Of a stretch of DNA of 64,000 bases, positions 18,640 to 53,357 are shown one piece after another. The stretch is from Candidatus Melainabacteria bacterium. GTDB lineage: Bacteria; Cyanobacteriota; Vampirovibrionia; 2-02-FULL-35-15. The notes under the pieces were generated by a model. That model was given only the letters and a program-made list of their open reading frames with translations. It made no database searches and was not told the DNA's origin. Numbering within the stretch: position 1 is the stretch's first letter; each line of letters opens with the position of its first letter. Where the stretch lies: NCBI GenBank assembly GCA_023250195.1, contig JAHFBF010000001.1, forward strand, positions 498,422 to 562,421, in the 5' to 3' direction. The translations under genes and the position numbers were made by a program.

Positions 18640-20538
18640 TTAATAAGTATAATTAGTTAATTTTACTCCTGAGCGATCTAGATAATCAAGCTCTATCTCT
18701 TCATGCTCACTCCATCCTTTAGAAGAAAGCAAAATATTCAACACCCCTTTACTCGAATCCAGAAAAACAATATCCGATTTAAAATCATTATCTATATCTG
18801 CAGAAAATATTTGTCCGGATAAATTGCTGTCTATTTGAATTTCAGGATTTAAGTTGTTTAAACTACTAGAATAAAATTTAAATTTTTTCTCAAGTAAATT
18901 AATAAAGCCTGGATCGGCAATAGTATCACCATCAAAATCTCCGGTTATTGGTACTAAGCTGTTTTTCGATATTATGTCTCCCAAGTTAATCTCTATTTCT
19001 TTAGAATCAGAAGATCGTTTTATAACAAACATATTCCTTTCAGGATCATAAATTGCAAAGTCATCTATATTATCACCATCATAATCACCAATTTGCGGTA
19101 TTCCTTTAGAGGTAACTTGCTTACTAAGGCTAATCAAATTAATGTTTTCTGGAGAAGATTTACCTAAAAAGCGAATATAGAATGTTTTAGATTTAGGTCT
19201 ATAAACTCCTATATCAGTAATATTATCACTATTGAAATTACCGATAAATGGCTTATCACACTCAAGACCAATAGGCAAAGCAAACTTCAGCCCTAATCTA
19301 CTTGAATCACACTTAAATACATTTGTATCTTTTGTCCACAAACAACAATCATTAACATAATCCCCATCAAAATCAGAAACAAAAGGAAAAGCATTATAGC
19401 TATTGTCCCATTTAAAATATTTTAACTTCTTATCATTTAAATTTTTGCTTATAAAACCACTTTTATTATAAAGCCATAAGACCAACTCATTCCCATAACC
19501 AACTACTGAACCTTTATTTAACTTATTTGTTAGAAGAAATTTCTGCAGAATAAAATTATTAACAGGAAAAGAATTGGTAATTTCAGAAAAGTGAAAAACC
19601 TTTTTCTTAAAAGAATCCTCCTTCAAATCAAAAGTTATAAGAACTTTTGAAGAGGCGTTCCAAAAAGCCAACTCACTTGCACCATCTCCATAATAATCAG
19701 CTTGCAAAGGAATAAAACTATCTTTACCAAGTTCTTTTTGGATCTTAGCTGTAATTTTCGGAGAAATTGGTCTTTGAAGTGTTGTAAGTATGACTTTTAT
19801 GGAATTGTCTTTAAAATTCCATACACACAAATCAGCTTTCCCGTCTCCATCATAATCAGAAGGTATTGGCAGAAATGAACTATCTCCAAGTTGCATTTCA
19901 TTAATTCTATTTTCTCTGGATAATTTAATGGTCCAAATGCCATTGTTTAAATTGTAAACAGCAAAATCACTTATTCCATCACCATCATAGTCCTTAACCA
20001 CAGGAATGTTTATGCCATTTCCAAGCTTAAAATTTATAACTCCTTTAGTTGAACTTAAAATTCCTTGAAAGGTATTAGTTTTTGATCTGTAAGTAACAAA
20101 GTCAAATTTGGTATCACCATCAAAATCTCCTACAATTGGTAAATCTCCAGCCTGCCCAAATTTAAAGTTAAAAACATTCTGCTTGGTCTTTATAATCCAC
20201 TCACCTTGACCTCTATAAATTCCATAGTCTAAAAAACTATCGTCATCAAAATATCCTACAAATGGGAAATCATTAATATCTCCAAAAGTAGACTTTAAAT
20301 AGTTGTTATTTTTAAAAGAGAGAGTTTCAAAAAAACAAGGTTCTAAAAATTTATTAAGCTTGGACATCGATGAAGTATTCCAAAAAATCAGGTCTGACCT
20401 TTTATCATCATCAATATCAAATGAATTATTGAGTTTATAGCTGGGCGAATTCACTGAAAGCAAACTGCTTTTATCATTGAAGCAGCCAAATAAAAAAAGA
20501 CTAAAGAAACAAAATAAAAAAAAGTTTTGAATCTTCAT
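18640..20538 (-). CDS. FG-GAP/VCBS repeat beta-propeller protein, exported (possible lipoprotein)
   Basis: Signal peptide ending LFLFGC. Many repeats of the Ca-binding-like motif D[YF]DGD[GT]xxD (DFDGDTKFD, DYDGDGISD, DYDGDGKAD, DFDGDYVND, DYDGDNIDD, DFDGDTIAD). Confidence 0.85.
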   Translation of the reverse strand: MKIQNFFLFCFFSLFLFGCFNDKSSLLSVNSPSYKLNNSFDIDDDKRSDLIFWNTSSMSKLNKFLEPCFFETLSFKNNNYLKSTFGDINDFPFVGYFDDDSFLDYGIYRGQGEWIIKTKQNVFNFKFGQAGDLPIVGDFDGDTKFDFVTYRSKTNTFQGILSSTKGVINFKLGNGINIPVVKDYDGDGISDFAVYNLNNGIWTIKLSRENRINEMQLGDSSFLPIPSDYDGDGKADLCVWNFKDNSIKVILTTLQRPISPKITAKIQKELGKDSFIPLQADYYGDGASELAFWNASSKVLITFDLKEDSFKKKVFHFSEITNSFPVNNFILQKFLLTNKLNKGSVVGYGNELVLWLYNKSGFISKNLNDKKLKYFKWDNSYNAFPFVSDFDGDYVNDCCLWTKDTNVFKCDSSRLGLKFALPIGLECDKPFIGNFNSDNITDIGVYRPKSKTFYIRFLGKSSPENINLISLSKQVTSKGIPQIGDYDGDNIDDFAIYDPERNMFVIKRSSDSKEIEINLGDIISKNSLVPITGDFDGDTIADPGFINLLEKKFKFYSSSLNNLNPEIQIDSNLSGQIFSADIDNDFKSDIVFLDSSKGVLNILLSSKGWSEHEEIELDYLDRSGVKLTNYTY

Positions 20539-20541
20539 ATT

Positions 20542-21516
20542 CTATTCATTTCTCTGTAATACTGAAATTGCAGAAACACAGTTACCCGGAACATTCCATT
20601 GATAGGAAAAAAGTTCCTGTTTTTTAAAGTTTAAAACATTCCATTTCTTTACACCTGGATCCCATGTAATAAGCTCAGGAATGCCATCTCCATCTATATC
20701 ACCTGAAGCTGGTATATCATTAACACCACCAAACTTTATTTCATTCTGGCTTCCATCTTTTGCATATTTAAAATACCATGTCTGATTAGATTTTCTCCAT
20801 AAAACAAGATCACATTTACCGTCACCATCATAATCATTAGGAACAATTATGTCCCATTCTTTGCCATGCTGGATGTGTTCAGTTTGATTGAAATTAAAAC
20901 TTGTGGTTGATTTAACTATATGCCAGACCCCATCATCAGGTCTCCAAACAATAAGATCTGATTTGCCATCTCCATCATAATCACCCGTAAAAGCAGAGTC
21001 CTGATATGAACCTTCATAAATTATCTTTGGAACTTTTCCTCCAGCCTCGCTGATATTGCTTAAATACCATCCACCTGCATTTGGCCTCCAAATACCTACA
21101 TCATAGCTTTTATCACCATCTATGTTACTTGGAATAGGCAAATCTCCTATACTCCCAACAAACATTTTCTTTGGGACTCCAACTCCACTTGTTAAATATA
21201 GAACCCACTCTCCGGAATCAGGCTGAAAAAATGTAAAATCTGTTTTTCCATCACCATCATAATCAGCAAAAACGGGTTGATAGGAAAGATTATTATCAAA
21301 AAATTGTTTCTCATAAAACTTACGATCTGAGGTTAATTGAAAATATAATTTGTTTGAATTTGAATCCCATACAGCTAAATCAGTTAATTTATCACCATCA
21401 AAATCACAACTGTAATATGACAGTGATGCAAATACTACTAACTTATCTTTCGTAAAATCAGTTAACCACATAGGAATAACAAACAAAAGCATACTCAGTA
21501 TGGCTGGGATCTTCAT
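20542..21516 (-). CDS. FG-GAP/VCBS repeat protein, exported
   Basis: N-terminal hydrophobic segment. Motifs DFDGDKLTD, DYDGDGKTD, DYDGDGKSD, DYDGDGKCD and DIDGDGIPE, each followed by W-containing strands. Confidence 0.85.
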   Translation of the reverse strand: MKIPAILSMLLFVIPMWLTDFTKDKLVVFASLSYYSCDFDGDKLTDLAVWDSNSNKLYFQLTSDRKFYEKQFFDNNLSYQPVFADYDGDGKTDFTFFQPDSGEWVLYLTSGVGVPKKMFVGSIGDLPIPSNIDGDKSYDVGIWRPNAGGWYLSNISEAGGKVPKIIYEGSYQDSAFTGDYDGDGKSDLIVWRPDDGVWHIVKSTTSFNFNQTEHIQHGKEWDIIVPNDYDGDGKCDLVLWRKSNQTWYFKYAKDGSQNEIKFGGVNDIPASGDIDGDGIPELITWDPGVKKWNVLNFKKQELFSYQWNVPGNCVSAISVLQRNE

Positions 21517-23348
21517 GGCACTAAAACCTCCACAGGAGAGGTATCTTTTGCAGGAATTTCCTGTTCTTTTTTAACAGCTGGAGGCTTCTTTCCCTGGAAA
21601 AAACTTGACAGCAAAAGAAGATATACAGCTAAAGCAGCAATACTAATATAAGCAGCCGCCTTTCTCACAGGAGTATGTTCAAATTTAATTTTTATTTGAT
21701 GTTTACCCGGCGGCACACGGAACATAATTAGACCAATCTTTGGTTCCATATTAACTTGAGTTTGGTTTTCATCAATATATACATTCCAACCGGGAAAATA
21801 AAAATTTCTTAGACTGATAAAATGTTCTCCCTGAGAAAAAACCTGAAACTCTCTTTCATGTGAAAGCCACTTTAAAAGAGTTATATCACAGGAAGGATCT
21901 GAAGAATTAATTGTTGGAGAAAAATCACGTCTAAAGTCAATTTGTTTCCAGTTTGGATTATTTGTTAAGTTGGGTCTGTATTCTTCATTTGGCCATAAAA
22001 CGTATAATCCGGCTTTCATAAGACTTTGTTCCGGTACCCATCTCCATTTATACATATTAATAAAATCAACATAAGCCAACCCTGCAAAAAGAAATGCAAT
22101 TGAAGCAAAAATGAACTTATACCCTGATAAATTAATTTTCTCTTTAGCAAGACAACCAACCAGATCAAAAGTGTAAACCATAATTACAGCACCAAATGGA
22201 ACAATAAACGTTGTAAACCTCCACGGGAATTGAATTGTCTGCATTGGTTTAATCATATGCCAAATAAAAAGAGATATTGGCGTCATCATTAAAAATGAAA
22301 TTACAAACATTGAAATTGCAATGTTGACTCTAAATGGTTCCTGAAAATATTGTTTAATCTTTCCTGTATTTAAGGACAAAACAACAATGCAAATTAGTAC
22401 TGCCAAGCCAAAGAGAGCATTACTCATTTCATAATATCTGTGATCAAAGATTGCCCAGGCAAAACCATCATCTCTATGTCTATCTAAATAAGTGTATAAA
22501 AAGTTTTTTGAAAAATCCCAGAGAGGCCCCTGTGTTAAAACTTCATCAGTATGAACAAATTTCTTTTCCAGGCATGCAGGAAATAAATAAAATCCGGCAA
22601 GAGAAGCACCCATTGCAAAGCTCAGAAGAATATTTTTTACAAACTTTTTTGTTCTGTGGAAATATAAATTAAACAAACAATAAGGGACAGCAAGCAGAGT
22701 GAAAACAAATGCAGTCGCCAAATGTGTCAAAGCTATTGCAGCATAACCAACCGAAATAATTAAAAATGATTTAAAATCAAAATCTTTATTTTTATCAAAT
22801 ATATCAATTCCATAATAAGTCAAAAATACAAATGCAACCGCCAGAGTACTGGTAGGCCAATTAGTGTTATAGATAAATATATGAATTGCCGGGGAAAAAA
22901 CCACAAATGCCATTGCAATTGAAGTTGAAAAGGCAGAGCCATGCCTTCTTAAATATAAATAACCAAACACAGAACAAAGAATCATTGGAATAACAAAAGT
23001 CCATTTAATGGCAAGGACTATATTCCTTAAAATCAAATCAAGTAAAATAAAAATATAATAAACAAGCGGAGCATAATAATTAAATATTGGAAGACCGGCA
23101 CCATTTACATCAGCATCAATCCATCTTGGCAGCCATTGCCCCTGCCAGAAGCATCTTTTAAAGTTATATGCATGTTCAATATGAATATGCCAGTCAGCAT
23201 GACTCGGAATCCCCTTACCAAAAATAATCGGAGCTGCTGAAAGAATCGTTAAAAGAGCAACAAAAAATATTCTTTCACTTCTTGATCCCAAGAAATGATA
23301 TGCTGAGCCTTTCTCCTCAGGTTTTTCTTGTATCTCATCAGCTTCCAA
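21513..23348 (-). CDS. Polytopic membrane protein, GT-C-like (YfhO / PTPS-related membrane glycosyltransferase type)
   Basis: At least 12 predicted TM helices. N-terminal loop HADWHIHIEHAYNF...WLPRWIDADVNGAGLPIFNYYAPLVYY. C-terminal soluble module FYFPGWNVYIDENQ...VPPGKHQIKIKF is typical of the YfhO/PTPS-related family. Confidence 0.7.
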   Translation of the reverse strand: MEADEIQEKPEEKGSAYHFLGSRSERIFFVALLTILSAAPIIFGKGIPSHADWHIHIEHAYNFKRCFWQGQWLPRWIDADVNGAGLPIFNYYAPLVYYIFILLDLILRNIVLAIKWTFVIPMILCSVFGYLYLRRHGSAFSTSIAMAFVVFSPAIHIFIYNTNWPTSTLAVAFVFLTYYGIDIFDKNKDFDFKSFLIISVGYAAIALTHLATAFVFTLLAVPYCLFNLYFHRTKKFVKNILLSFAMGASLAGFYLFPACLEKKFVHTDEVLTQGPLWDFSKNFLYTYLDRHRDDGFAWAIFDHRYYEMSNALFGLAVLICIVVLSLNTGKIKQYFQEPFRVNIAISMFVISFLMMTPISLFIWHMIKPMQTIQFPWRFTTFIVPFGAVIMVYTFDLVGCLAKEKINLSGYKFIFASIAFLFAGLAYVDFINMYKWRWVPEQSLMKAGLYVLWPNEEYRPNLTNNPNWKQIDFRRDFSPTINSSDPSCDITLLKWLSHEREFQVFSQGEHFISLRNFYFPGWNVYIDENQTQVNMEPKIGLIMFRVPPGKHQIKIKFEHTPVRKAAAYISIAALAVYLLLLSSFFQGKKPPAVKKEQEIPAKDTSPVEVLVP

Positions 23349-23355: not shown

Positions 23356-24135
23356 CTACCCCTTTATTCCTGAATCTGTAATATTATACTTATAAAGAAA
23401 CCGTATTTTTAAAACCTCAACTAGCATTTTTACAGAATCTCTAAAAATATTAACCTTTGAGCCCTCAATATGATACCAGTTTATAGGGACTTCTTTAATC
23501 TTGTAACCAAATTTTTTTAAAAGAAACAGATATTCAATATCAAAGGAGAATCCAAAGCATTTTTGATTTTCTGCTAATTTTTTAGCAGCATCCATTCTAA
23601 ATAATTTAAAGCCGCACTGGGTATCTTTCAGAGAAGCAAGACCTAAAATGCTTAAAACTAAATGAAAGACTCTTCCTGTAAGTCTCCTTGTAAATGACAT
23701 GGAAACTTTTGTATCTTTGTCTTTTATTACCCTTGATCCAATTGCAGCATCGTAATCAGATTTTATAGCCTCTAGCAATTTTTGTACTTCATTAATTGGT
23801 GCAGCACCATCTGCATCTGTATATAAAACAATTGAATTTGAAGCCTTTAAAAACCCCAGGTTTACTGCATAACCTTTCCCCCTATTAGGCATATAACCAG
23901 TTAATTGAAAACATTTTTTATTTTTGCTTTCATTTTGAATCCAGCCATTTACCACCCCTGACGTATTGTCAGTACTTCCATCATTTACAATTATTACTTG
24001 GAATAAATCCGGCTTGGAAATTTTACTTATATAACTATCGATATCATTTAAGGCTTTTGTAATTCTGCTTGATTCATTAAATGCAGGAATAATAATAGTA
24101 ATGGAGCTGCTTAATTTATGATTCAAATTTCTCAC
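23356..24135 (-). CDS. GT2 polyprenyl-phosphate glycosyltransferase (DPM1/Alg5/CsbB-like)
   Basis: IIIPAFNES...IVNDGSTDNT...YTDADGA...QCGFKLF. Short (259 aa) soluble GT-A. Confidence 0.85.
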   Translation of the reverse strand: MRNLNHKLSSSITIIIPAFNESSRITKALNDIDSYISKISKPDLFQVIIVNDGSTDNTSGVVNGWIQNESKNKKCFQLTGYMPNRGKGYAVNLGFLKASNSIVLYTDADGAAPINEVQKLLEAIKSDYDAAIGSRVIKDKDTKVSMSFTRRLTGRVFHLVLSILGLASLKDTQCGFKLFRMDAAKKLAENQKCFGFSFDIEYLFLLKKFGYKIKEVPINWYHIEGSKVNIFRDSVKMLVEVLKIRFLYKYNITDSGIKG

Positions 24136-25707
24136 CTAGCTCTTTCCTGGTTTGTCATTAGAAACAATCTTAGAACCAAGAAAAACTTCTTTATATGCAT
24201 ATTGATCACTTGATTGAAGAACTCCACAAACTTCAGTCTCAGGATTGTAAAATATTAAATCTGCCATAAAATCCAGATCTAAATCACCTGCTAATGGAAT
24301 ACCTTCAATTCTATTGTCTAATATATTGTTAACTGGTAACCCAAGATTTGATGAAAAGTAATTAAGTATCATAGAGGAAAAATCTATTCCGCCAAAATCA
24401 CATTTACCATCTCCGTCAAAATCAGCAATCAACGGTTCTCCCCCAAAATCATTATTCAAGAAGGCTTCAGTCATCGTACTAGACAATAAAACTTTTAATG
24501 ACTTTCTGTCTGCACCTAAAGTAAAAGAATCATTAACAAAATCACCATCAAAATCACACTTTAAATTGTCTGATTTGTTTGCCAAGCTTGACGTTACAAA
24601 GCTTTTAAGATACTCAAGTGACCCGCTCAAAGGATTTCTTAATAAAAACTTTCTCAGCAAATAATATTCAACAGGTAAAGAGTTGGAAGATATACTTACT
24701 TTATAGTTTTCATAATTTATATCATTCCCGACAATATTAAACACATGGAGTAATTTGTTCTCATTTTCCCAAAAAGTAATTTCAGATTTGCCATCACCAT
24801 TGTAATCTGAAGAAACCGGGAAGCATTTAATTCCTTTAAGCCTTGCTTCTACTTCAGAACATAGTTTTTCTGAGAGTTTTTTGCTAAACTTCGAAAAATT
24901 TATCTTACAATTATTATTTCTATAATTCCATACTGCTAAATCAGCTTTTCCATCACCATCATAATCACTTGGTATTGGCAAATAATCAGATCCACCAAGA
25001 TTAAAATCTCTCGTTAAACCATCTTTGGAAGATCTTACTATCCATATACCACCTATTTGTCTGTAAGAAGAAAGATCAGCCCATCCATCTCCGTCATAAT
25101 CCATTGGCACAGGAATATCACCCGTTATACCCAAATGAATTTCAAGAAGCTTATTTCCATTAGACAGGTAACCATAAAACCCACTATTTCTTGGTCTGTA
25201 AATAACAAAATCACATTTTTTATCACCGTCATAATCACTAGGAACAGGTAAATCTCCTGATTCCCCAAATCTATGCCCAAAACCAACCATAGATAATCCA
25301 TCAATTAAATACCATTCATTCCCATCCCGAAGAAATTTATAAACCCCATAGTCAGAATTACCGTCACCATTAAAATCTCCATAAATAGGGATATTTCCAA
25401 CTTCTCCTACTTGTGAAATCTGATAGTTTATATTTTGTGGACTAATCGCCTCAAAGAAACAACTTTTAGGTAGCTTATTTTTATCTCCAAATAAATTAGA
25501 AAAGTTCCAAACTATGAAGTCAGATTTACCATCACCATTTATATCTATTAAACTATTGATCTTGTTGCTTAGTTTATTGTCCCCAATAGATAACAAAGGA
25601 GACTGAGAACAACCATTTTGAAGAAAAACAAAAATCAAAAATATTGAGCAAAATATTCCAATCCTATATTTACTACTTATTTTTAACTTTTTAAAACAAA
25701 TAACCAT
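24136..25707 (-). CDS. FG-GAP/VCBS repeat protein, exported (possible lipoprotein)
   Basis: Signal peptide followed by Cys (FLQNGCSQ). Motifs DINGDGKSD, DFNGDGNSD, DYDGDKKCD, DYDGDGWAD, DYDGDGKAD, DYNGDGKSE, DFDGDGKCD. Confidence 0.85.
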   Translation of the reverse strand: MVICFKKLKISSKYRIGIFCSIFLIFVFLQNGCSQSPLLSIGDNKLSNKINSLIDINGDGKSDFIVWNFSNLFGDKNKLPKSCFFEAISPQNINYQISQVGEVGNIPIYGDFNGDGNSDYGVYKFLRDGNEWYLIDGLSMVGFGHRFGESGDLPVPSDYDGDKKCDFVIYRPRNSGFYGYLSNGNKLLEIHLGITGDIPVPMDYDGDGWADLSSYRQIGGIWIVRSSKDGLTRDFNLGGSDYLPIPSDYDGDGKADLAVWNYRNNNCKINFSKFSKKLSEKLCSEVEARLKGIKCFPVSSDYNGDGKSEITFWENENKLLHVFNIVGNDINYENYKVSISSNSLPVEYYLLRKFLLRNPLSGSLEYLKSFVTSSLANKSDNLKCDFDGDFVNDSFTLGADRKSLKVLLSSTMTEAFLNNDFGGEPLIADFDGDGKCDFGGIDFSSMILNYFSSNLGLPVNNILDNRIEGIPLAGDLDLDFMADLIFYNPETEVCGVLQSSDQYAYKEVFLGSKIVSNDKPGKS

Positions 25708-28975: not shown

Positions 28976-28982
28976 TTATCAA

Positions 28983-45460: not shown

Positions 45461-45545
45461 ATAGTTGAGATTCGATATGTCATAGTGTTTGTTATTCTAA
45501 AGTATTATATACTGTTTTGAATAATAAGAAAAGAATCTAAGAAAT

Positions 45546-46541
45546 ATGAAAAATAATGTTTTGATTATAGGTGCTGGCAAAATAGGATCAATCAGAGCTA
45601 AAGTTGCTAAAAAGTTATCATCAAAGTCCAATTTATATATTTTTGACACTGACTTAGACAAAGCAAAAGTTCTTGCACAGGAAGTAAATGGAAAAATCGT
45701 TTACTCACTCAATGAAGGACTAAAAAATAAAAATATTCAGATAGTTATCGTTTCTGTTATTAATAAGAATACAAAAGATGTCTGCATCTCTGCTTTAAGA
45801 AACAAAAAGCATGTGCTTTGCGAAAAACCTATGGGAACTGGCTTTAAAGAAGCTCTTCAAATTTATAAAGCAGTAGAAAAATTTAAAGTGAAATTTAAAT
45901 GTGGTTTTAACCATCGTTATCACCCGGCAATACAAGAGGCTTACAAACTATGCTCACAAAAAAAAATTGGTAAAATTCTATATGTAAAAGGATCTTATGG
46001 GCATGGAGGCAGAAAAGGTTATGACAAAGAATGGCGTGCTAAAAAGTCTTTAAGTGGTGGTGGTGAATTATTAGATCAAGGCTCTCATTTATTGGATCTT
46101 TGTCATTGGTTCTTTAAATTTGAAAAAATCAAAGACGTTTATTGTATTGCAAAAACAATGTTTTGGAACATGGAGGTTGATGACAATGCGTTTGTACTTA
46201 TTGAAACGAAATCTGGTAAAGTAGCACAAATTCATGCTACCTGGACACAATGGAAAAATCTTTTTAGATTTGAAATCTATGGTACAAAAGGAGCAATAGA
46301 AATTAATGGCCTTGGGAAATCCTATGGAAGAGAAACATTAAAACTTTTTATAAGGAAAAATCCGGGACAGCCGCCACAAATTATTGAAAAGTCATTTACA
46401 GGTCGTGATAAATCATGGGAGCTTGAGTGGCTGGATTTTATAAATAATATAAACTCAAATATTACCTACAAGAGACTAATGTCAAATCATAAAGAATCTC
46501 TAGAAGTAATGAGAACAATTACCAAATTATATAGTCAATAA
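45546..46541 (+). CDS. Gfo/Idh/MocA family NAD(P)-dependent oxidoreductase
   Basis: VLIIGAGKIGS Rossmann motif, the conserved CEKP motif (VLCEKPMG), and C-terminal alpha/beta domain length. Confidence 0.85.
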   Translation: MKNNVLIIGAGKIGSIRAKVAKKLSSKSNLYIFDTDLDKAKVLAQEVNGKIVYSLNEGLKNKNIQIVIVSVINKNTKDVCISALRNKKHVLCEKPMGTGFKEALQIYKAVEKFKVKFKCGFNHRYHPAIQEAYKLCSQKKIGKILYVKGSYGHGGRKGYDKEWRAKKSLSGGGELLDQGSHLLDLCHWFFKFEKIKDVYCIAKTMFWNMEVDDNAFVLIETKSGKVAQIHATWTQWKNLFRFEIYGTKGAIEINGLGKSYGRETLKLFIRKNPGQPPQIIEKSFTGRDKSWELEWLDFINNINSNITYKRLMSNHKESLEVMRTITKLYSQ

Positions 46542-46547
46542 ACACAT

Positions 46548-47264
46548 ATGCATTACCTTTCGATTGTAATACCCGCTTATAATGAAGAAAAAAAAATTGC
46601 AAAGGATATAACAGCTGCGTATAAATATTTTAAAGAATATTCAATTGATGGAGAAGTAATAATTATAGATGATGGCAGCACTGATCAAACTTATAATATT
46701 GCTTCAGGTTTTTCAAAACAGTTCCCATCCTTAAAAGTAATTACCTACAATAAAAATAGAGGGAAAGGCTATGCAACGAAAACCGGCATATTAGGTGCAA
46801 CAGGCGAATATATTTTACTTGCTGATTCCGGATTATGCGTACCTTTTAAATGTGCAACCATAGGTTTAGAGCTCTTAAAACCTGGAGTTGATATTGCTAT
46901 AGGCTCAAGAAAAACATCTGATGAAAGAGTTAAGATCTTAGTTAAGCAGCCATTCTATAGAAGATTTGGCTCACAAATATTTAAACTTTTAATTCAGCTG
47001 TTTAAAGTTATTCCAAAAGGTATTGATGATTCTCAATGCGGTTTTAAGTTGTTTAAAAAAGAAGCAGCTCATAACATTTTTAAAAAAATGTTTACTAATA
47101 AATTTATGTGGGATATTGAAATGTTAAGAAGGGCAAAAAACGAGAATTATACAATAGTGGTTTTTCCAGTAGAATGGTCCAATGACTCAGATACTAGATT
47201 TAATCCATTTATTGGTTCTTTTGAAAACTTATTTCAGGTAATAAACATAATTCTTAGAACATAG
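46548..47264 (+). CDS. GT2 polyprenyl-phosphate glycosyltransferase (DPM1/Alg5-like)
   Basis: LSIVIPAYNEE...IIDDGSTDQT...LADSGLC...QCGFKLF. 238 aa. Confidence 0.85.
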   Translation: MHYLSIVIPAYNEEKKIAKDITAAYKYFKEYSIDGEVIIIDDGSTDQTYNIASGFSKQFPSLKVITYNKNRGKGYATKTGILGATGEYILLADSGLCVPFKCATIGLELLKPGVDIAIGSRKTSDERVKILVKQPFYRRFGSQIFKLLIQLFKVIPKGIDDSQCGFKLFKKEAAHNIFKKMFTNKFMWDIEMLRRAKNENYTIVVFPVEWSNDSDTRFNPFIGSFENLFQVINIILRT

Positions 47265-47306
47265 TATTCTTGGGGTATATTAAAAGTATTGAAAGAGGTA
47301 AAACTC

Positions 47307-47924
47307 ATGAACTACATAAAAACATATCTGGAACAAACTTCAAAAATTGCACTTATGCTTGATCAGGACAAAATTCTTCAGGCAGTTAACCTCTTAAAAA
47401 CTGTCAGGCAGGACAAAGGCAGGCTTTTCTTTCTTGGCGTAGGCGGCAGTGCAGGAAATGCTTCACATGCAGTTAATGATTTTAGAAAAATCGCTGGAAT
47501 CGAATCTTATGCTCCTACTGACAATGTTTCAGAACTTACCGCTAGAGTTAATGATGATGGATGGGATTCCGTTTTTTCCAGCTGGTTAAAGGTCAGCAAT
47601 CTAAACTCAAAAGATGTTTTAGTCATTTTTTCAGTCGGCGGCGGAAGTATAGAAAAGAACATAAGCACAAATCTGGTTAAAGCTCTAAATCATGCAAAAA
47701 CAGTAGGAGCAAAAACCCTAGGTATAGTCAGCAGAAATGGCGGTTATACAAAAGAGGTTGCTGACTGCTGCATATTAATTCCCACACTAAGCCCGGAAAC
47801 AGTAACACCACATGCAGAAGAATTCCAGGCAATCGTATGGCACTTATTGGTTTCACATCCTGAAATTCAAAAAAATCAGATGAAGTGGGAAAGCACAGCC
47901 CAAACAGCCACAAGCAAAAAATAA
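47307..47924 (+). CDS. gmhA: SIS-domain sedoheptulose 7-phosphate isomerase
   Basis: GRLFFLGVGGSAGNASHAVNDF SIS motif. ATG at 47307 is preceded by AGAGG. Adjacent to gmhB. Confidence 0.75.
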   Translation: MNYIKTYLEQTSKIALMLDQDKILQAVNLLKTVRQDKGRLFFLGVGGSAGNASHAVNDFRKIAGIESYAPTDNVSELTARVNDDGWDSVFSSWLKVSNLNSKDVLVIFSVGGGSIEKNISTNLVKALNHAKTVGAKTLGIVSRNGGYTKEVADCCILIPTLSPETVTPHAEEFQAIVWHLLVSHPEIQKNQMKWESTAQTATSKK

Positions 47925-48496
47925 TGGATAAAGCAATCTTTTTGGATCGTGATGGTGTTATAAATTATCCGGTTTTAAATCCAAAAACAAATGAGTACGA
48001 AGCCCCTGCAAATAAAGACGACTTTAAATTATTTCCTGGAGTAATGGAAGCTCTAAAAGAGTTACAAAAGTCAGATTACAAACTATTCCTGGTTTCAAAT
48101 CAACCTGATTATGCAAAAGGGAAAACCGCTCTTGAGAACCTTCATCTGGTTCATAATAAAATGGATTCTATATTAAAAGAAAATAACATTGTTTTTACAG
48201 AATATTATTATTGCTATCATCATCCTAAAGGAATCATTCCTGAGTATTCATTTGAATGTAAGTGCAGAAAACCTGGGAATTTATTCTTAACTCAGGCACA
48301 AATAAAATACAAACTGGATTTTTTAAAATCCTGGATGGTTGGTGACAGTGATGTAGATATCTTTTGTGGTCAGTCAGCCGGTGTAAGAACAATATTGGTC
48401 AAAACAAAGGAATCTGCCCATAGAATAGGGGAAAGTACCCCTGAGCATATAGTTAACAATTTACAAGAAGCTGTTGAAGTGATAAAAAGGGAGTAA
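47924..48496 (+). CDS. gmhB: HAD-IIIA D,D-heptose 1,7-bisphosphate phosphatase
   Basis: AIFLDRDGVIN (DxDxT-type motif I), VSNQ, zinc-site Cys pattern CYHHP...CKCRKP, GDSDVD. Start at the TAATG overlap with gmhA. Confidence 0.85.
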   Translation: MDKAIFLDRDGVINYPVLNPKTNEYEAPANKDDFKLFPGVMEALKELQKSDYKLFLVSNQPDYAKGKTALENLHLVHNKMDSILKENNIVFTEYYYCYHHPKGIIPEYSFECKCRKPGNLFLTQAQIKYKLDFLKSWMVGDSDVDIFCGQSAGVRTILVKTKESAHRIGESTPEHIVNNLQEAVEVIKRE

Positions 48497-48513
48497 GTAT
48501 AAAGGAGATATTT

Positions 48514-49257
48514 ATGTTAAATATAAAAGATCTAAAAATTAAAATCTTTGCAGATGGAGCTGATATTAAAGCAATGGTTGAGGCCTATAAGCAGGGAATC
48601 GTAAAAGGCTTTACAACAAATCCTACTTTAATGAAAAAAAATGGACTTACAGACTATGAATCTTTTGCAAAAGAAGTCTTAAAGAATATTTCTGACAGAC
48701 CAATTTCATTTGAAGTTTTTTCAGATGAGTTTAATGAAATGGAATTACAGGCAAAAGAGATAGCTTCCTGGGGAAAAAATATAAACGTAAAAATTCCTAT
48801 TACAAACACTAAAGGACAATCCTCAATCCCACTTATTAAAAAGCTTTCAAGCGATGAATTATCACTTAACATCACAGCAATTTTAACTGTAGAACAAGTT
48901 AAAGAAGTACAAAAGGTTTTAAATCCCAATACTTATAATATTGTTTCTGTCTTTGCTGGAAGAATTGCAGACACAGGTAGAGATCCAATGCCTTGCATGA
49001 TTGAATGTGCAAAAATATTAAAACCTCTGCCAAATACAGATCTTCTATGGGCAAGCTCAAGAGAGCTTTTGAATATATTTCAAGCGGAGCAAACCGGCTG
49101 TCAAATTATTACTGTAACACCTGATATTTTAAAAAAATTGTCCGGCGTAGGAAAAGATCTTACTGAACTTTCACTTGATACAGTAAAAATGTTTTACAAT
49201 GACGCTTGTCAAGCTGGATTTAAAATCAACACAGACAAAGTAGGAAGCAAAAAATAA
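48514..49257 (+). CDS. tal: Transaldolase / fructose-6-phosphate aldolase family (short form)
   Basis: FADGADI...GFTTNPTL...NVKIPIT...VFAGRIADTG are family motifs. Confidence 0.8.
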   Translation: MLNIKDLKIKIFADGADIKAMVEAYKQGIVKGFTTNPTLMKKNGLTDYESFAKEVLKNISDRPISFEVFSDEFNEMELQAKEIASWGKNINVKIPITNTKGQSSIPLIKKLSSDELSLNITAILTVEQVKEVQKVLNPNTYNIVSVFAGRIADTGRDPMPCMIECAKILKPLPNTDLLWASSRELLNIFQAEQTGCQIITVTPDILKKLSGVGKDLTELSLDTVKMFYNDACQAGFKINTDKVGSKK

Positions 49258-49270: not shown

Positions 49271-50827
49271 ATGATTTATGTAGTCGGTTCAGGACCTGCA
49301 GGTATATCTTGTGCTCATGCACTCTTGTGCAAAGGACTTGAAGTTACTATGCTGGATTCAGGTATAGAACTTGAGAGTGAGCGTGCAAAGATTCTAGAGA
49401 AATTTGTTAACTCTAAACCAGAAAGTTGGGACTTAGATTCAATTCATACAATTAAAGGAAATACTGTTGCGAGTACCAGCGGTAGTTTTTTTAAAGGTGT
49501 TTATGGCTCTGATTTTCCGTACAGAGAAGTAACTGCATACATCCCTCATGAAGCCAAGAACGTTCAACCAAGAATCTCCCTGGCAAAAGGCGGATTAAGC
49601 AATATATGGGGTGCTGCTGTTCTGCCATATATTGATGAAGATCTTGCCGATTGGCCTTTATCAGTAAAAGAGCTTACTTCTCATTATGAATCTGTGCTTT
49701 CATTTATGGATCTTGCTGCTGTTAATGATGACCTGGTTAATAAATTTCCTCTCTACAGCAAAACTTATAAGCCTTTAAATCCTTCTAATCAGACTATAGA
49801 TCTAATGAAAGATCTTGAATCAAGTAAAAGTATTTTAAACTCCAAAGGTTTTTTATTTGGTCATTCACGTCTTGCTGTAAATTCTAATTGCGTTTACTGT
49901 GGACTTTGTCATTATGGCTGTCCTATAGGTGCTATTTATAATTCTTCCAGCACATTAGAAGAACTTAAAAAAAACAAAAGCTTTCATTATATAAAAGATG
50001 TAATTGTACAAAAGGTTTCAGAGTTAAATAATAAAGTCAATATATCAGCAATTACAAGAACAAAAAATGAACCTATTACCTTTACAGGCGAAAGAGTCTA
50101 TTTAGCCTGTGGAGTAATCTCAACAACAAAAATTTTACTTGAATCACTTGAAGCTTATGATAAAGAGTTAACAATAAAAGACAGTCAGTGGTTTTTAATT
50201 CCTTTAATCAGATACAAAAAGTCCCCTGGTATTGTAAATGAAAATTTATACACACTGTCACAATTGTTTGTTGAATTATTCGATTTAAACTTAAGTAAGA
50301 ATACTATTAATCTTCAGCTCTATATGTACAATGATCTTTTTCTAAATGCAATAAAAAATATTTTAGGTTTCACGTATCCCTTATTTAAATTTCCTGTTAA
50401 CGAACTATTGGATAGACTTATGTTGATTATGGGTTACTTACATTCTGATTCCTCTTCTGCTTTTTCCGTAAAACTTGAAAAGAACACTTCTAAGCTCATA
50501 ATGGAAGCAAAAATCAATAAGAACGTAAACAAAACTATAAATGGTGTCTACAAAAAGATATTTGAGAATAGAAACTTATTTAAAGCAATTCCAATACCAG
50601 GTATTACAAAGATTCCAAACCCTGGCTATGGTTCACATTCAGGTGGTAGTTTTCCTATGAGATTAAAGCCAAAAGATTTTGAGACAGATTCTTTAGGAAG
50701 ACCTTCTGGGTTTTTCAAGGTCCACGTTGTTGATTCCACAGTTTTTCCAAGCATTCCTGCTACTACCATTACATTAACTGTTATGGCAAACGCTTATAGG
50801 ATAGGTTCTGCATATAATGAAATATGA
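49271..50827 (+). CDS. FAD-dependent GMC-type oxidoreductase with an internal CxxCGxCxxGCP motif (paralog 2)
   Basis: Colinear with 35033-36634 at well over half identical residues by eye. VVGSGPAGISCA; CVYCGLCHYGCP at 49888-49923; VHVVDSTVFPSIPATTITLTVMANAYRIG. Confidence 0.7.
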   Translation: MIYVVGSGPAGISCAHALLCKGLEVTMLDSGIELESERAKILEKFVNSKPESWDLDSIHTIKGNTVASTSGSFFKGVYGSDFPYREVTAYIPHEAKNVQPRISLAKGGLSNIWGAAVLPYIDEDLADWPLSVKELTSHYESVLSFMDLAAVNDDLVNKFPLYSKTYKPLNPSNQTIDLMKDLESSKSILNSKGFLFGHSRLAVNSNCVYCGLCHYGCPIGAIYNSSSTLEELKKNKSFHYIKDVIVQKVSELNNKVNISAITRTKNEPITFTGERVYLACGVISTTKILLESLEAYDKELTIKDSQWFLIPLIRYKKSPGIVNENLYTLSQLFVELFDLNLSKNTINLQLYMYNDLFLNAIKNILGFTYPLFKFPVNELLDRLMLIMGYLHSDSSSAFSVKLEKNTSKLIMEAKINKNVNKTINGVYKKIFENRNLFKAIPIPGITKIPNPGYGSHSGGSFPMRLKPKDFETDSLGRPSGFFKVHVVDSTVFPSIPATTITLTVMANAYRIGSAYNEI

Positions 50828-50854: not shown

Positions 50855-51739
50855 ATGAATCAAGAAGAAAAAAAATGCATTATCTCCGGTACAGGTGGCT
50901 TTGTCGGTTCACACATTAAAAACTTTTTTCTTCAAAATGGTTGGAAAGTTTATGAATTAAAACACTCTATTCAAAACGGAAATACAAGCAACAAATATTT
51001 AATACCTTTCTCCTTAGAGGGTAAAATTGACAGTAAAATCTTTCAGAATATAGAAATTCTTATTCACTGTGCTTATGATTTCAAGCAAAGCAATTGGGAA
51101 GATATTTTTAATGTCAATGTTAATGGCAGTATAAATCTCCTTAAAGCAGCAAAATCAGCAGGTGTACAAAAAATTATTTTTATATCTACAATTGCTGCAT
51201 TTGAAAACTGTAAATCCATGTATGGAAGAGCAAAGCTTGAAATTGAAAAAGAGGCTTTAAAATTAGGAGTTACTGTTATCCGACCAGGACTTATTTACAG
51301 CCAAAATGCAGGTGGAATGTTCGGTGCACTAAATAAAGTAATTTCACTTCTTCCGATAATTCCAGTTATAGGAAGCGGAAATAATGTAATGTTTTTAATT
51401 CATATAGATGATTTATGTAAGCTGGTATATAAGCTTTCTACAGGTGAAATTAAAAGTCCCTCAAGTCCAATAATAGCTGCATATGAAAAAGGTAAAACCT
51501 TCAGAAATATTTTAGATATTTTATTAAGCTCCAAAAGCAAAAAAGCATTTTACATGTCTATTCCATATAATTTAGTACTTGCAATGCTAAAAGTACTTGA
51601 AGGTTTAGGATTAAGAATTCGCTTTAGAAGTGACAACCTTATAAGTATGATGAATTATGACCCAAACCCGCATTTTGATCTTGAGGTATCAAAAAGTATT
51701 CAGCTCAGAGATTTTAATATTCAAAGCCTAAATTCCTAA
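50855..51739 (+). CDS. NAD-dependent epimerase/dehydratase family protein (SDR)
   Basis: ISGTGGFVGSH Rossmann motif and YGRAK (YxxxK). 294 aa. Confidence 0.8.
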   Translation: MNQEEKKCIISGTGGFVGSHIKNFFLQNGWKVYELKHSIQNGNTSNKYLIPFSLEGKIDSKIFQNIEILIHCAYDFKQSNWEDIFNVNVNGSINLLKAAKSAGVQKIIFISTIAAFENCKSMYGRAKLEIEKEALKLGVTVIRPGLIYSQNAGGMFGALNKVISLLPIIPVIGSGNNVMFLIHIDDLCKLVYKLSTGEIKSPSSPIIAAYEKGKTFRNILDILLSSKSKKAFYMSIPYNLVLAMLKVLEGLGLRIRFRSDNLISMMNYDPNPHFDLEVSKSIQLRDFNIQSLNS

Positions 51740-51878: not shown

Positions 51879-52016
51879 CTTACAAACCCAAATATGATAT
51901 ATTATATTTTCTGGGCTTGGAAGTAAACGCAGATAAGCGAAAAGCGTTGCGAAGAGCAATACTTTGAGTGCCGGGAGGAAGAGAAAACATTTAAGCCTAA
52001 ATGTTTTCAAAAATAA

Positions 52017-53357
52017 ATGAATATAACAGTTATCGGTCTTGGTTACGTAGGATTAGTTACTGCAGCATGTTTAGCTGAACTTGGACATGAAGTCTTAGGA
52101 ATTGATATTGACCTTGAGAAAATCAAACTCCTGAAAGATGGACAGATGCCAATTTATGAACCTGGCTTAAGAGAACTTGTTTCAAAAAATGAATCGGAAG
52201 GCAGATTAATTTTTACAAATGCTTTTAGTTCTGAAGTTGATAAATCTGATCTTATCTTTTTAGCAGTTGGTACTCCATCAAAAGAAAATGGCGTTCCTGA
52301 TGTAAGTGCAATTTACAAAGCAATTGATTCATTGATTCCATTTATCAAGAAATATAAAATCTTTATTGTAAAATCTACCGTTCCAGTTGGCACAAACTTT
52401 GAAATAAAAAAATATTTACAATCTAAGTTAAATTCTGAATTTGAAGTTGTTTCAAATCCTGAGTTTTTAAAAGAGGGGGCCGCTGTCCAGGATTTCATGA
52501 AACCAGACAGAATTGTAGTTGGCACAGATAATATAAAAGCTTCTGAAATAATGAAAGAGCTTTATTCTCACTTTACAAGAAACGGTCACCCAATATTGAT
52601 CATGGATTTAGTATCAGCTGAAACAGTAAAATATGCAAGCAACTTAATGCTGGCTTTGAAAGTCTCATTTATAAACGAACTCGCTCTGCTCTGCGATTCA
52701 ATAGGAGCAGATATAAGGAGAGTAAGAGAAGGGGTAATAAGTGATCCGCGTATAGGTTCCAATTTTTTATATCCTTCAATTGGGTTTGGCGGCTCATGCC
52801 TGCCAAAAGATGTTCAGGCAGTTGCTCATCTATGTAAAGAAAAATCTATAAATCTTTTAATACCTGAAGCTGTTCTTTATGCAAATGAAAATCAATCAAG
52901 CTGGTTTATAAATAAAATAGCAGGCTGGTTTAAAAGTGGATTAAAAAACAAAACTCTTGCTGTATGGGGCACCAGCTTCAAGGCCGGTACAGATGACATT
53001 AGAGAATCTCCAGCAATAAGGATAATTGAAGGCTTAGCAAAGTTATGTACCAGGCTAAAATTATATGATCCTATTGCCTTAAAAAATACAAAAAAACACT
53101 TCGAAGATTTTCAATTTAAAGACAAAATTGAATATGCAAAAAATGAAATAGATTCAATTAACGGAGCAGATGGGCTTGTAGTCTGTACAGAATGGCTTCA
53201 GTTTAGAAGTCCAAACTTTGAAAAACTTTCATCCTCTTTGAAGGACAAAGTAATTTTCGATGGCAGAAATTTATATGATCCTGAAAAATTAAAGTTATAT
53301 GGACTAAGTCATGTTGGTGTGGGAATCCCTGCTAATAAGGTAAAAGCCGGGGTTTGA
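52017..53357 (+). CDS. ugd: UDP-glucose 6-dehydrogenase
   Basis: MNITVIGLGYVGLVTAACLA, catalytic GFGGSCLPKD, and C-terminal UDP-binding domain (GTSFKAGTDDIRESP). Confidence 0.93.
   Translation: MNITVIGLGYVGLVTAACLAELGHEVLGIDIDLEKIKLLKDGQMPIYEPGLRELVSKNESEGRLIFTNAFSSEVDKSDLIFLAVGTPSKENGVPDVSAIYKAIDSLIPFIKKYKIFIVKSTVPVGTNFEIKKYLQSKLNSEFEVVSNPEFLKEGAAVQDFMKPDRIVVGTDNIKASEIMKELYSHFTRNGHPILIMDLVSAETVKYASNLMLALKVSFINELALLCDSIGADIRRVREGVISDPRIGSNFLYPSIGFGGSCLPKDVQAVAHLCKEKSINLLIPEAVLYANENQSSWFINKIAGWFKSGLKNKTLAVWGTSFKAGTDDIRESPAIRIIEGLAKLCTRLKLYDPIALKNTKKHFEDFQFKDKIEYAKNEIDSINGADGLVVCTEWLQFRSPNFEKLSSSLKDKVIFDGRNLYDPEKLKLYGLSHVGVGIPANKVKAGV

Follow-up and report, generated by a model that had tools for sequence, protein, structure and literature searches.

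What might a bacterium make with four glycosyltransferases of family 2 (GT2), five polytopic membrane proteins of the glycosyltransferase C (GT-C) class and four FG-GAP propellers, all encoded in one block of DNA? The question is raised by positions 18640-53357 of the window, by which we mean the whole 64-kb stretch analysed here, from a Melainabacterium, a non-photosynthetic relative of the Cyanobacteria whose clade includes a 'Candidatus Caenarcanales' genome. All evidence is computational, and the region was read in Pfam and NCBIfam scans of every open reading frame (ORF). According to a mechanical ORF list it consists of 29 tightly packed genes, which, besides the three classes above, encode four class-I S-adenosylmethionine (SAM) methyltransferases, two GMC-like Fe-S flavoproteins, a GDP-heptose-type pathway, a transaldolase, a UDP-glucose 6-dehydrogenase (ugd), four proteins of the NAD-dependent epimerase/dehydratase type, one classical short-chain dehydrogenase/reductase (SDR) and one Gfo/Idh/MocA oxidoreductase. 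The propellers, methyltransferases, flavoproteins, heptose pathway and ugd had been listed in the initial annotation, and each was confirmed by Pfam or NCBIfam. The profile searches also agreed with what it had found missing: none of the 29 ORFs matched Wzx, Wzy, Wzz, an ABC exporter, Bac_transf, Glycos_transf_4, Glycos_transf_1 or MATE/Polysacc_synt at E <= 0.01, and no chain-length regulator, initiating phosphoglycosyltransferase or GT-B enzyme was found among them. The intergenic gaps are too short for a further gene of more than 90 amino acids (aa).

We propose, at a probability of roughly 0.6, that this is a lineage-specific cell-envelope glycosylation locus working by a polyprenyl-monophosphate route, with transfer by GT-C enzymes on the periplasmic face of the membrane. 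The idea of an extracytoplasmic glycosylation machine rather than an O-antigen or capsule locus, put forward in the initial annotation, is supported by our results; tests for the three findings that it had named as contrary to it (membrane proteins without GT-C folds or acidic first-loop residues, conventional export or polymerisation genes among the ORFs, a block not conserved in relatives) did not refute it. The four GT2 enzymes, described there as DPM1/CsbB/ArnC-like, all carry PF00535 (82-101 bits):

23356-24135, minus strand: short soluble GT2 of 259 aa, the core module's candidate for a polyprenyl-phosphate sugar synthase (PF00535, 87.7 bits)
34059-34778, minus strand: short GT2 of 239 aa, candidate polyprenyl-phosphate sugar synthase (PF00535, 101 bits)
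39777-40958, minus strand: GT2 of 393 aa (PF00535) with four C-terminal transmembrane (TM) helices, in the architecture of ArnC and type-III dolichol-phosphate mannose synthase (DPMS)
46548-47264, plus strand: short GT2 of 238 aa, directly upstream of heptose genes (PF00535, 90.9 bits)

In NCBIfam, the closest curated families of all four are the dolichol-phosphate (Dol-P) hexose transferase, AglJ, PpgS, PgfS and ArnC. The 259-aa enzyme is best matched by the Dol-P hexose transferase, AglJ, PgfS and PpgS, the 239-aa enzyme by AglJ (127 bits), ArnC (75 bits) and the Dol-P hexose transferase (72 bits), and the 238-aa enzyme by PgfS as its top match. A search for solved relatives of the 393-aa and 259-aa proteins placed Pyrococcus DPMS, ArnC and Synechocystis GtrB at the top: PfDPMS (5mlz, 2e-13), GtrB sll0501 and ArnC for the 259-aa GT2, and ArnC 9bhc (E 1e-11, aligned over residues 6-294), together with PfDPMS, for the 393-aa GT2. 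The three short soluble enzymes (238-259 aa) resemble DPM1, Ppm1 and PpgS; the DxD position reads DAD in the 259-aa GT2, DAD and DGD in two others and DSG in the 238-aa GT2. The four GT2s are thus closest to characterised polyprenyl-phosphate synthases, and their products are predicted to be polyprenyl-monophosphate sugars. The 393-aa protein has its four hydrophobic helices at residues 238-375, and an orthologue 47% identical to it, in locus L085 (L numbers denote loci of other assemblies), carries PF26629 GT2_TM_C. In type-III DPMS, the TM domain is similar to GtrA and has been suggested as the flippase of Dol-P-mannose (PMC12992685). By analogy, the region offers a single candidate for a flippase, the four-helix domain of the 393-aa GT2, and the synthase may flip its own product.

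Five membrane proteins with GT-C-like hallmarks had also been proposed, and family or fold evidence was obtained for all of them:

21513-23348, minus strand: GT-C-class protein of 611 aa (GT-C611), PTPS_related (PF10131, 50.8 bits against a cutoff of 26.4)
25868-28975, plus strand: fusion protein of 1035 aa with a GT-C-fold part (residues ~1-520), an alpha/beta middle part (~520-700) and an FG-GAP propeller (~700-1035)
28965-30668, plus strand: GT-C-class protein of 567 aa (GT-C567), distant paralogue of the 611-aa protein (PTPS_related, 25.3 bits, slightly under the cutoff)
31690-33042, minus strand: GT-C-class protein of 450 aa from a PMT_2/ArnT-like family, with no Pfam match of its own
36674-38203, minus strand: GT-C-fold protein of 509 aa (GT-C509), with no Pfam family, its fold taken from an AlphaFold2 model

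Only the start of the 567-aa ORF had to be corrected, from 28983 to a TTG codon at 28965 in the mechanical ORF list. A simple hydropathy scan, in which some calls overlap, gave 10-14 hydrophobic segments in each protein and about 12 in GT-C611. PTPS_related (PF10131) and PMT_2 are both families of the Pfam GT-C clan CL0111 (PMC7801869), and through them the 611-, 567- and 450-aa proteins were assigned, while the 509-aa protein and the fusion were modelled in AlphaFold2. GT-C567 and GT-C611 are 22% identical (E 8e-12), with 45-50% identity between GT-C567 and its orthologues (L082, L084 and L090) and 55-66% between GT-C611 and its counterparts in relatives. The 450-aa protein belongs to a family of 17 members, of which 11 match PMT_2 (best 1.2e-10) and five DUF2142, with orthologues in L001, L080, L081 and L091. 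The 509-aa family is far larger, with 190 homologues that include proteins labelled Solirubrobacterales and Desulfobacterium, and no Pfam model covers it. Many of its members are 600-830 aa long and two in L084 (14783-21293) reach 1083-1090 aa; these longer proteins thus have sizeable additional domains at the C terminus, possibly further modules for acceptor binding.

The AlphaFold2 model of GT-C509 (pLDDT 92.4, pTM 0.93) gave 13 top Foldseek matches in the PDB that were all GT-C enzymes at probability 1.0, among the fold matches being AglB (3.4e-5), ArnT (2.2e-4), ALG12, ALG3, Pmt4, Pmt1/2, AftB and DPY19; AftD followed at ranks 15 and 17, behind one Na+-pyrophosphatase (probability 0.12). 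For the fusion (whole chain, pLDDT 84.5, pTM 0.82), the membrane part matched PglB 5ogl (8.8e-5), STT3, AglB and DPY19 at probability 1.0, and in the lists of both proteins transporter-type folds appeared only at a probability of 0.12 or below. An invariant Asp, a candidate for the acidic first-loop residue named in the initial annotation, follows the first TM helix in four of the five proteins: D52 directly after the helix in the alignment of GT-C611 and GT-C567 (eight orthologues from both groups, HADWH versus AHDS), D45 together with H49 in the first loop of the 450-aa family, and D76, along with the nearly invariant D62 (>=90%), in the long loop of the 509-aa family. The fusion has three invariant acidic residues, E33, D176 and D195; the sidedness of the loops in all five proteins is a prediction. 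From these families and models, the five membrane proteins are placed in the GT-C class and are predicted to use lipid-phosphate sugar donors.

Comparison of the family alignments of the fusion, the 450-aa and the 509-aa proteins in hhalign revealed no significant similarity, and the region therefore holds four GT-C-class families unrelated in sequence. Profiles of the 450-aa and 509-aa families found nothing among PDB sequences at E <= 1, and a single-sequence search with GT-C611 gave chance matches only. No Pfam family was found in the N-terminal half of any of the 22 fusion members; since its distant matches of about 620 aa likewise have no Pfam family and resemble none of the four remaining membrane proteins, there is no transitive sequence link from the fusion to a curated GT-C family. 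With PglB as top fold match, an STT3-type oligosaccharyltransferase was considered for the fusion and rejected: no STT3 Pfam match was found in the 22 members, the consensus has no WWDYG-like motif and no machinery for pyrophosphate-linked oligosaccharides is present.

What, then, do the propellers do beside these enzymes? The initial annotation had offered substrates, scaffolds or glycan-binding partners, and our results favour a partner or accessory role; a substrate role is less favoured in view of the fusion, the gene coupling and the absence of a Ser/Thr tract. The four propellers are:

18640-20538, minus strand: FG-GAP propeller lipoprotein of 632 aa (FG-GAP632; PF13517, E 6.4e-9), its N-terminal region ending in a lipobox-like LFGC
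20542-21516, minus strand: FG-GAP propeller of 324 aa (FG-GAP324; PF13517, E 4e-23) with an N-terminal hydrophobic anchor or signal
24136-25707, minus strand: FG-GAP propeller lipoprotein of 523 aa (FG-GAP523; PF13517 and PF01839) with a lipobox-like LQNGC
residues ~700-1035 of 25868-28975, plus strand: FG-GAP propeller of the fusion (PF13517/PF01839)

All contain 6-8 calcium-type DxDGDxxxD motifs (six in the 632-aa and eight in the 523-aa protein), and none of the FG-GAP proteins has a Ser/Thr-rich tract, Ser and Thr together making up no more than 20-30% of any stretch of 30 residues. FG-GAP523 and FG-GAP632 share 35% identity, and FG-GAP324 is 27% identical to the C-terminal half of the fusion (E 2e-26). 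FG-GAP324 is found at 52-70% identity in all relatives and FG-GAP632 at 43-47% in L082, L084 and L090. In five of five genomes the FG-GAP324 gene lies downstream of GT-C611 with an overlap of 1-4 nt, an order that mirrors the fusion from N to C terminus, and FG-GAP324 is likely a partner subunit of GT-C611. In Foldseek the propeller of the fusion resembles ITFG2 and the FG-GAP-type N-acetylglucosamine lectin of Psathyrella velutina (PVL, 2bwm), and the whole-chain pTM of 0.82 suggests a fixed arrangement of the domains. By analogy, the propellers are probably accessory periplasmic modules of the GT-C enzymes, lectin-like and acceptor-binding, rather than substrates, because characterised GT-C enzymes often carry extracytoplasmic acceptor-binding domains. 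EmbC and AftD are GT-C enzymes with such carbohydrate- or acceptor-binding modules. A C-terminal carbohydrate-binding domain is also present in the GT136 enzyme ORF12, a GT-C protein from a system where auxiliary epimerases are precedented as well (PMC11127046). A first, alignment-based genome scan had caught FG-GAP motifs, and the resulting 78 loci from Acidobacteria and other phyla served as a control: in none of the 78 does a GT-C gene adjoin the FG-GAP gene, so the association is specific to the clade.

The distribution of the fusion points to the same clade. It has 35 full-length homologues, every named one from Candidatus Melainabacteria; a scan of 185,579 GTDB species representatives with its N-terminal domain returned five genomes, all Melainabacteria and one of them labelled Candidatus Caenarcanales. 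Among 1.84 billion cluster representatives, 19 proteins matched at E <= 1e-30, and the fusion is a stable one, as nearly all of these are 1000-1045 aa long. Eight genomes were compared, namely the window and seven others (nzgw193; nzgw190 / ENA contig; Caenarcanales SW_12; GCA_016193285; a Logan assembly; RIFCSPHIGHO2_02_FULL_34_12; RIFCSPLOWO2_02_FULL_35_15), and in all eight the locus occupies the same chromosomal site, adjoining the ornithine-cyclodeaminase-like (OCD) gene, with amt and glnK, wherever the flank is visible. A core of FG-GAP324, GT-C611 and the fusion is present in 8/8 genomes and the 259-aa GT2 in 7/8. These genes form part of a left module of seven, in which FG-GAP632, FG-GAP324, GT-C611, the GT2 and FG-GAP523 lie on one strand and face the fusion and GT-C567; its order is identical in the window, L084 and L090 and rearranged in GCA_016193285. 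Chance alone does not account for the block, since the same gene families recur at the same site in seven other genomes. Present in some genomes and absent from others are the 509-aa and 450-aa families, extra GT2s, methyltransferases, the flavoprotein-reductase pair and the heptose genes, a pattern like that of a surface-glycan locus whose content varies at a fixed site. Conservation as a block, which the initial annotation had asked about, therefore holds for the core at one site in eight genomes and does not extend to the 35 kb as a single unit, which is made up of the lineage-specific left module and a heptose/GT2/GT-C module with variable genes between them.

Only one relative (L091 + L087; MFRN01000026.1, RIFCSPLOWO2_02_FULL_35_15) has a match above 80% identity. 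Its right-hand genes are 62-88%, its OCD gene 71% and its fusion only 45% identical to those of the window; judging from the 45% against 62-88%, the fusion evolves much faster than its neighbours. The same relative encodes an extra 511-aa oxidoreductase with flavin adenine dinucleotide (FAD) in the interval that separates the 294-aa epimerase gene from ugd; in the window this interval is a gap of 277 bp.

The remaining genes of the region would make and tailor the sugars:

30682-31668, plus strand: SAM methyltransferase of 328 aa (Methyltransf_23, E 2e-18) with a C-terminal hydrophobic segment at 292-316
33148-34029, plus strand: SAM methyltransferase of 293 aa (Methyltransf_23, E 9e-20)
35033-36634, plus strand: GMC-like FAD flavoprotein of 533 aa (weak GMC_oxred_N/C, FAD Rossmann fold, CxxCxxCxxxCP)
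38208-39164, minus strand: NAD-dependent sugar epimerase/dehydratase of 318 aa (PF01370, 151 bits), RmlB-/GalE-like below equivalog cutoffs
39166-39777, minus strand: SAM methyltransferase of 203 aa (Methyltransf_23, E 7e-14)
40967-41623, minus strand: SAM methyltransferase of 218 aa (Methyltransf_23/11/12)
41627-42463, minus strand: classical SDR of 278 aa (adh_short, 186 bits)
42467-43525, minus strand: HddA-like GHMP kinase of the heptose-7-phosphate kinase type (NF049969, E 1.7e-52, below the equivalog cutoff)
43512-44246, minus strand: HddC-like sugar-1-phosphate nucleotidyltransferase (NTP_transferase; NF049965, E 6.6e-32; mannose-1-phosphate guanylyltransferase, 2.3e-37; both below cutoffs)
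44243-45394, minus strand: NAD-dependent sugar epimerase/dehydratase of 383 aa (PF01370), GalE-/RmlB-/heptose-epimerase-like below cutoffs
45546-46541, plus strand: Gfo/Idh/MocA sugar oxidoreductase of 331 aa (PF22725 and PF01408)
47289-47924, plus strand: GmhA-like sedoheptulose-7-phosphate isomerase (SIS_2; TIGR00441, E 5.5e-16, below the cutoff)
47885-48496, plus strand: GmhB-type heptose bisphosphate phosphatase, HAD-IIIA (NF006506, E 2.8e-37; TIGR01656 and TIGR01662 above their subfamily-domain cutoffs)
48514-49257, plus strand: transaldolase (TIGR02134, 342.6 bits against an equivalog cutoff of 281.95), which supplies sedoheptulose-7-phosphate
49271-50827, plus strand: GMC-like FAD flavoprotein of 518 aa with a CxxCxxCxxxCP Fe-S motif
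50855-51739, plus strand: NAD-dependent epimerase/reductase of 294 aa (PF01370), the conserved partner of the flavoprotein
52017-53357, plus strand: UDP-glucose 6-dehydrogenase, ugd (three UDPG_MGDP_dh domains; TIGR03026, 438.9 bits, above the cutoff)

All four enzyme types of the heptose pathway (GmhA, HddA, GmhB and HddC) are present as best or near-best matches, and the predicted product is of the GDP-D-glycero-alpha-D-manno-heptose type, the nucleotide (GDP or other) being part of that prediction. The HddA-like kinase is 75-86% identical in L001, L083 and L087, and the GmhA-like isomerase 88% in L087 and 52% in L085. The two flavoproteins are 60% identical to each other, with CxxCxxCxxxCP at residues ~206-219, and the closest solved relatives of the 518-aa protein are the catalytic subunits of FAD glucose dehydrogenase (6a2u_B and 8hdd_A, 5e-6) and the large subunit of fructose dehydrogenase. 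In both of these dehydrogenases the catalytic subunit contains an Fe-S cluster; it is unusual for a glycan locus to encode GMC-like flavoproteins with an Fe-S motif. The 294-aa epimerase gene lies directly downstream of the flavoprotein gene in the window, in L001 (58% identity) and in L087 (70%), and in the window and L087 the pair is preceded by gmhA, gmhB and the transaldolase gene. It is a reasonable inference, by analogy to DprE1/DprE2, that flavoprotein and reductase epimerise a sugar by oxidation followed by reduction.

The heptose genes also occur with a GT2 and a GT-C enzyme outside the clade. A contig of 69.5% GC (L085 1-17135, Logan SRR25547203) carries a gene string homologous to 36674-49257 of the window at 28-52% identity, comprising gmhA, gmhB, transaldolase, epimerase, hddA, Gfo/Idh/MocA, methyltransferase, GT2 and hddC genes, then a GT-C509 homologue, followed by an SDR, a 318-aa-type epimerase, a 393-aa-type GT2 and another methyltransferase. 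The 318-aa-type epimerase, beside the GT2/GT-C pair, is 48% identical to that of the window, the SDR, next to the GT-C gene, 31% and the Gfo/Idh/MocA protein 37%. In this string the GT-C509 homologue (P0108) has a GtrA domain fused to its N terminus, and in L086 a bare, divergently transcribed pair of a GT2 and a 509-family GT-C gene is found. L085 provides the strongest contextual evidence that the 509-aa family would work with a polyprenyl-phosphate synthase and a GtrA-type flippase, and its gene content suggests that the heptose pathway feeds a polyprenyl-phosphate route. The module is shared between lineages of very different base composition.

Housekeeping genes bound the region: to its left lie the OCD gene, amt and glnK, to its right phoU, ispF, dnaX, pth and dxr. 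Its GC content (0.29-0.34) lies below that of the flanks (0.34-0.37). The genes are arranged in four main blocks by strand, broken at 31690-36634 by a series of single genes that alternate in strand; the counts from promoter and terminator scans did not differ from those in shuffled sequence. A mobile genomic island was considered and rejected, because there is no tRNA gene in the 64-kb window and the chromosomal site is conserved. Beyond the left end, an ORF of 1496 aa (11027-15517, minus strand) has no Pfam match, signal peptide or obvious repeats; at the same position upstream of the OCD gene, L080, L084 and the ENA contig have a large gene of 1394-1608 aa, also with no Pfam match. As a glycoprotein substrate the 1496-aa protein was set aside, having neither a signal peptide nor a Ser/Thr-rich region. 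Just right of the region lie ispF (54692-55159, plus strand) and dxr (58560-59747, minus strand), genes of the methylerythritol phosphate pathway, which feeds the synthesis of isoprenoids and hence of polyprenyl phosphate; their position may be coincidence. Between ispF and dnaX, an ORF of 292 aa without Pfam match (55334-56212, plus strand) is overlapped by one of 230 aa on the opposite strand (55444-56136, minus strand).

How could these parts work together? From the family and fold assignments, gene order and conservation observed here, we infer donor chemistry, topology of action, propeller role and acceptor as follows. Cytoplasmic enzymes would make and tailor nucleotide sugars, including one of the GDP-D-glycero-alpha-D-manno-heptose type fed by the transaldolase, UDP-glucuronate from Ugd and the products of the epimerases/dehydratases. 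Each of the four GT2s would then join one sugar to polyprenyl phosphate at the membrane's inner face. The sugar may be altered, prior to or following this loading, by the methyltransferases and by the Fe-S flavoprotein together with the SDR that accompanies it. The lipid-linked sugars would be flipped, the C-terminal domain of the 393-aa GT2 being the sole candidate for this step, and on the periplasmic face the five GT-C transferases would move them to an acceptor encoded outside the locus. The propellers would assist in transfer, one being fused to a GT-C enzyme, one encoded in translational coupling with a GT-C gene and two being lipoproteins. That the left module has one synthase and three GT-C enzymes hints at several linkages made from one donor, like mycobacterial mannan. 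A bolder version would see a complete, GT-C-only periplasmic glycan assembly line in a diderm outside the Actinobacteria, comparable to that of mycobacterial lipomannan/lipoarabinomannan (LM/LAM), with propellers as acceptor-holding or processivity subunits, a polyprenyl-monophosphate heptose donor and a GMC Fe-S flavoprotein and SDR that re-tailor the sugar on its lipid; we put it forward tentatively, as a possible though doubtful extension.

Several observations weigh against a polyprenyl-monophosphate/GT-C locus. No GT2 of the four reaches an equivalog cutoff in NCBIfam, and short soluble GT2s can also act on lipid-linked oligosaccharides. The 238-aa GT2 has DSG in place of DxD and may differ in metal and nucleotide binding or be catalytically atypical. 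A flippase gene (GtrA PF04138, SMR or MATE) was found in none of the ORFs of the region, and no acceptor or priming enzyme was identified in the locus. On the side of the membrane proteins, the fold matches are moderate (TM-scores of 0.4-0.48 for GT-C509, and of 0.25-0.28 for the fusion when normalised to its full length), the conserved E33, D176 and D195 of the fusion have no assigned place on the topology and only one of the four GT-C families includes a characterised member. The likeness of the propeller to a lectin is generic to 7-bladed propellers. Finally, all the genomes are metagenome-assembled.

Three other explanations were weighed against this evidence. The GT2 and GT-C genes could serve independent decorations of the Gtr or Arn type on separate envelope molecules (lipid A/core, peptidoglycan, pili), with modules that have no link to each other and FG-GAP genes as unrelated neighbours. 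The heptose/GT2/GT-C509 module standing alone on an unrelated high-GC contig, the bare GT2 and GT-C509 pair of L086, and the ArnT/PMT_2-like 450-aa protein with ugd nearby, as in arn loci, all fit such an arrangement. We nevertheless consider it unlikely: the left module departs from a one-synthase/one-transferase plan in having one GT2, three GT-C enzymes and four propellers in the same order in three genomes, the modules are kept together at a single site across eight genomes, and FG-GAP genes of other phyla are not adjacent to GT-C genes. A different reading takes the propellers as the exported substrates of a protein O-glycosylation system modelled on the pgf operon of Streptococcus mutans, in which the genes for a GT-A enzyme, an epimerase and two GT-C enzymes adjoin those for the adhesins that they modify. 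The Pgf cluster comprises PgfS, PgfE, PgfM1 and PgfM2 along with the substrate adhesins Cnm, CnaB and CbpA, a precedent for substrates encoded within the cluster (PMC12041528). PgfS is among the best NCBIfam matches of two of the GT2s, and three of the FG-GAP proteins appear to be exported (two with lipobox-like signals, one with an N-terminal hydrophobic anchor or signal) and always lie beside GT-C genes. The Ser/Thr-rich disordered regions of Pgf-type substrates, however, are missing from the FG-GAP proteins. In the fusion, a propeller and a GT-C enzyme form a single polypeptide, an arrangement kept across the family, and the translational coupling of another propeller gene to a GT-C gene fits a subunit better than a substrate. 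With the YfhO family unmatched by any of the membrane proteins in Pfam and NCBIfam, we judge this explanation quite improbable.

The third would make the region a conventional O-antigen, capsule or exopolysaccharide locus after all, in which the GT2s assemble a repeat unit linked to undecaprenyl pyrophosphate, divergent Wzx, Wzy or ligase proteins hide among the membrane proteins and the gene for the initiating enzyme lies outside the region. Like O-antigen loci, the region keeps to a fixed site, differs in content between genomes and has a GC slightly below that of the flanks; nucleotide-sugar genes are many and three of the membrane-protein families have no characterised members. Against this explanation, no Polysacc_synt/MATE, Wzy_C, Wzz, ABC, Bac_transf or Glycos_transf_4 match was obtained at E <= 0.01, the two modelled proteins resemble AglB, PglB, ArnT, ALG and Pmt enzymes, with transporter folds at a probability of 0.12 at most, and the 450-aa family matches PMT_2. 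As the GT2s are closest to polyprenyl-phosphate synthases and a GT-B enzyme is absent, such a locus is in our opinion very improbable, and envelope glycosylation by polyprenyl-monophosphate donors and GT-C enzymes is retained as the preferred reading.

Which of the known systems does this locus resemble? Among them are three-component systems such as GtrA/GtrB/GtrC of Shigella and Salmonella and the PPPRS/MATE/GT136 pentofuranose system of Citrobacter youngae (PMC11127046). They have in common with our locus a polyprenyl-phosphate sugar synthase and a GT-C enzyme acting outside the cytoplasm, possibly with auxiliary epimerases. Where those have one synthase and one GT-C enzyme, the locus has four and five, respectively; it has no separate GtrA, SMR or MATE gene and no main-chain polysaccharide genes nearby; its accessory domains are FG-GAP propellers, and by sequence its GT-C families are not GtrC, Glucos_trans_II or GT136. 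With ArnC/ArnT it shares the alignment of the 393-aa GT2 to ArnC (6-294), the PMT_2/ArnT-like family of the 450-aa protein and ugd, but neither the ArnA formyltransferase, ArnB aminotransferase, ArnD nor ArnE/F is encoded here, and the ArnC scores are 43-75 bits against an equivalog cutoff of 529. Gram-positive counterparts are CsbB/GtcA/YfhO, for teichoic acids, and the Pgf operon of S. mutans (PMC8035078, PMC12041528). They too combine a GT-A synthase with one or more GT-C enzymes, in the case of Pgf with an epimerase, and exported proteins are encoded within the same cluster. Our locus differs from them in having no YfhO match and no GtcA; its own exported proteins are without Ser/Thr-rich regions, and one of them is part of an enzyme.

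A further parallel is found in the mycobacterial pathways for LM/LAM and arabinogalactan (Ppm1, PimE, MptA/B/C, DprE1/E2, Emb and Aft), in which several GT-C enzymes share polyprenyl-monophosphate donors in assembling a glycan on the membrane's outer face, some of them (EmbC, AftD) have carbohydrate-binding modules, and a flavoprotein and an SDR epimerise a lipid-linked donor. The differences are considerable: another phylum is concerned, the GT87, GT83, Emb and Aft families show no detected sequence relation to the locus and there is no UbiA-type phosphoribosyltransferase. The flavoproteins of the region, GMC-like and with an Fe-S motif, are not homologous to DprE1, which is of the vanillyl-alcohol-oxidase (VAO) type, so that the likeness is a functional analogy only; polymerisation as in mycobacteria would here be a prediction. 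The GmhA/HddA/GmhB/HddC pathway, as in Campylobacter capsules and Aneurinibacillus S-layer glycans, is matched in all four types, with a transaldolase added here. In the heptose systems known to us, cytoplasmic Leloir transferases add the heptose, whereas in the window and in L085 the pathway sits among polyprenyl-phosphate-type GT2 and GT-C genes. This context would imply a lipid-monophosphate heptose donor, of which we know of no described case, and the cross-phylum heptose/GT2/GT-C module is a lead to it.

The initial annotation had known of no described system with this composition. This stands for the composition, as the combination of parts was not found in the literature searched, and not for the working principle, which is established in the Gtr, Arn, CsbB/YfhO, Pgf, GT136 and LM/LAM systems (PMC11127046, PMC8035078 and PMC12041528 for some of them). 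Undescribed in the literature searched are the use of GT-C enzymes at such a scale without conventional machinery, the partnership of GT-C enzymes with FG-GAP propellers, the two GT-C-fold families outside Pfam and the heptose link. Glycosylation by polyprenyl monophosphates and GT-C enzymes is usually seen as the addition of a single sugar, with mycobacteria and the eukaryotic endoplasmic reticulum as exceptions; four synthases and five GT-C enzymes of four families in one locus suggest that the building of glycans outside the cytoplasm may be more widespread. One of the two families defined here is itself widespread (190 homologues, some with GtrA fused), and the tie of FG-GAP to GT-C by fusion and gene coupling gives a testable role to a common, poorly understood bacterial repeat domain. 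The locus also offers a first view of envelope glycobiology in the Melainabacteria, the non-photosynthetic sister group of the Cyanobacteria.

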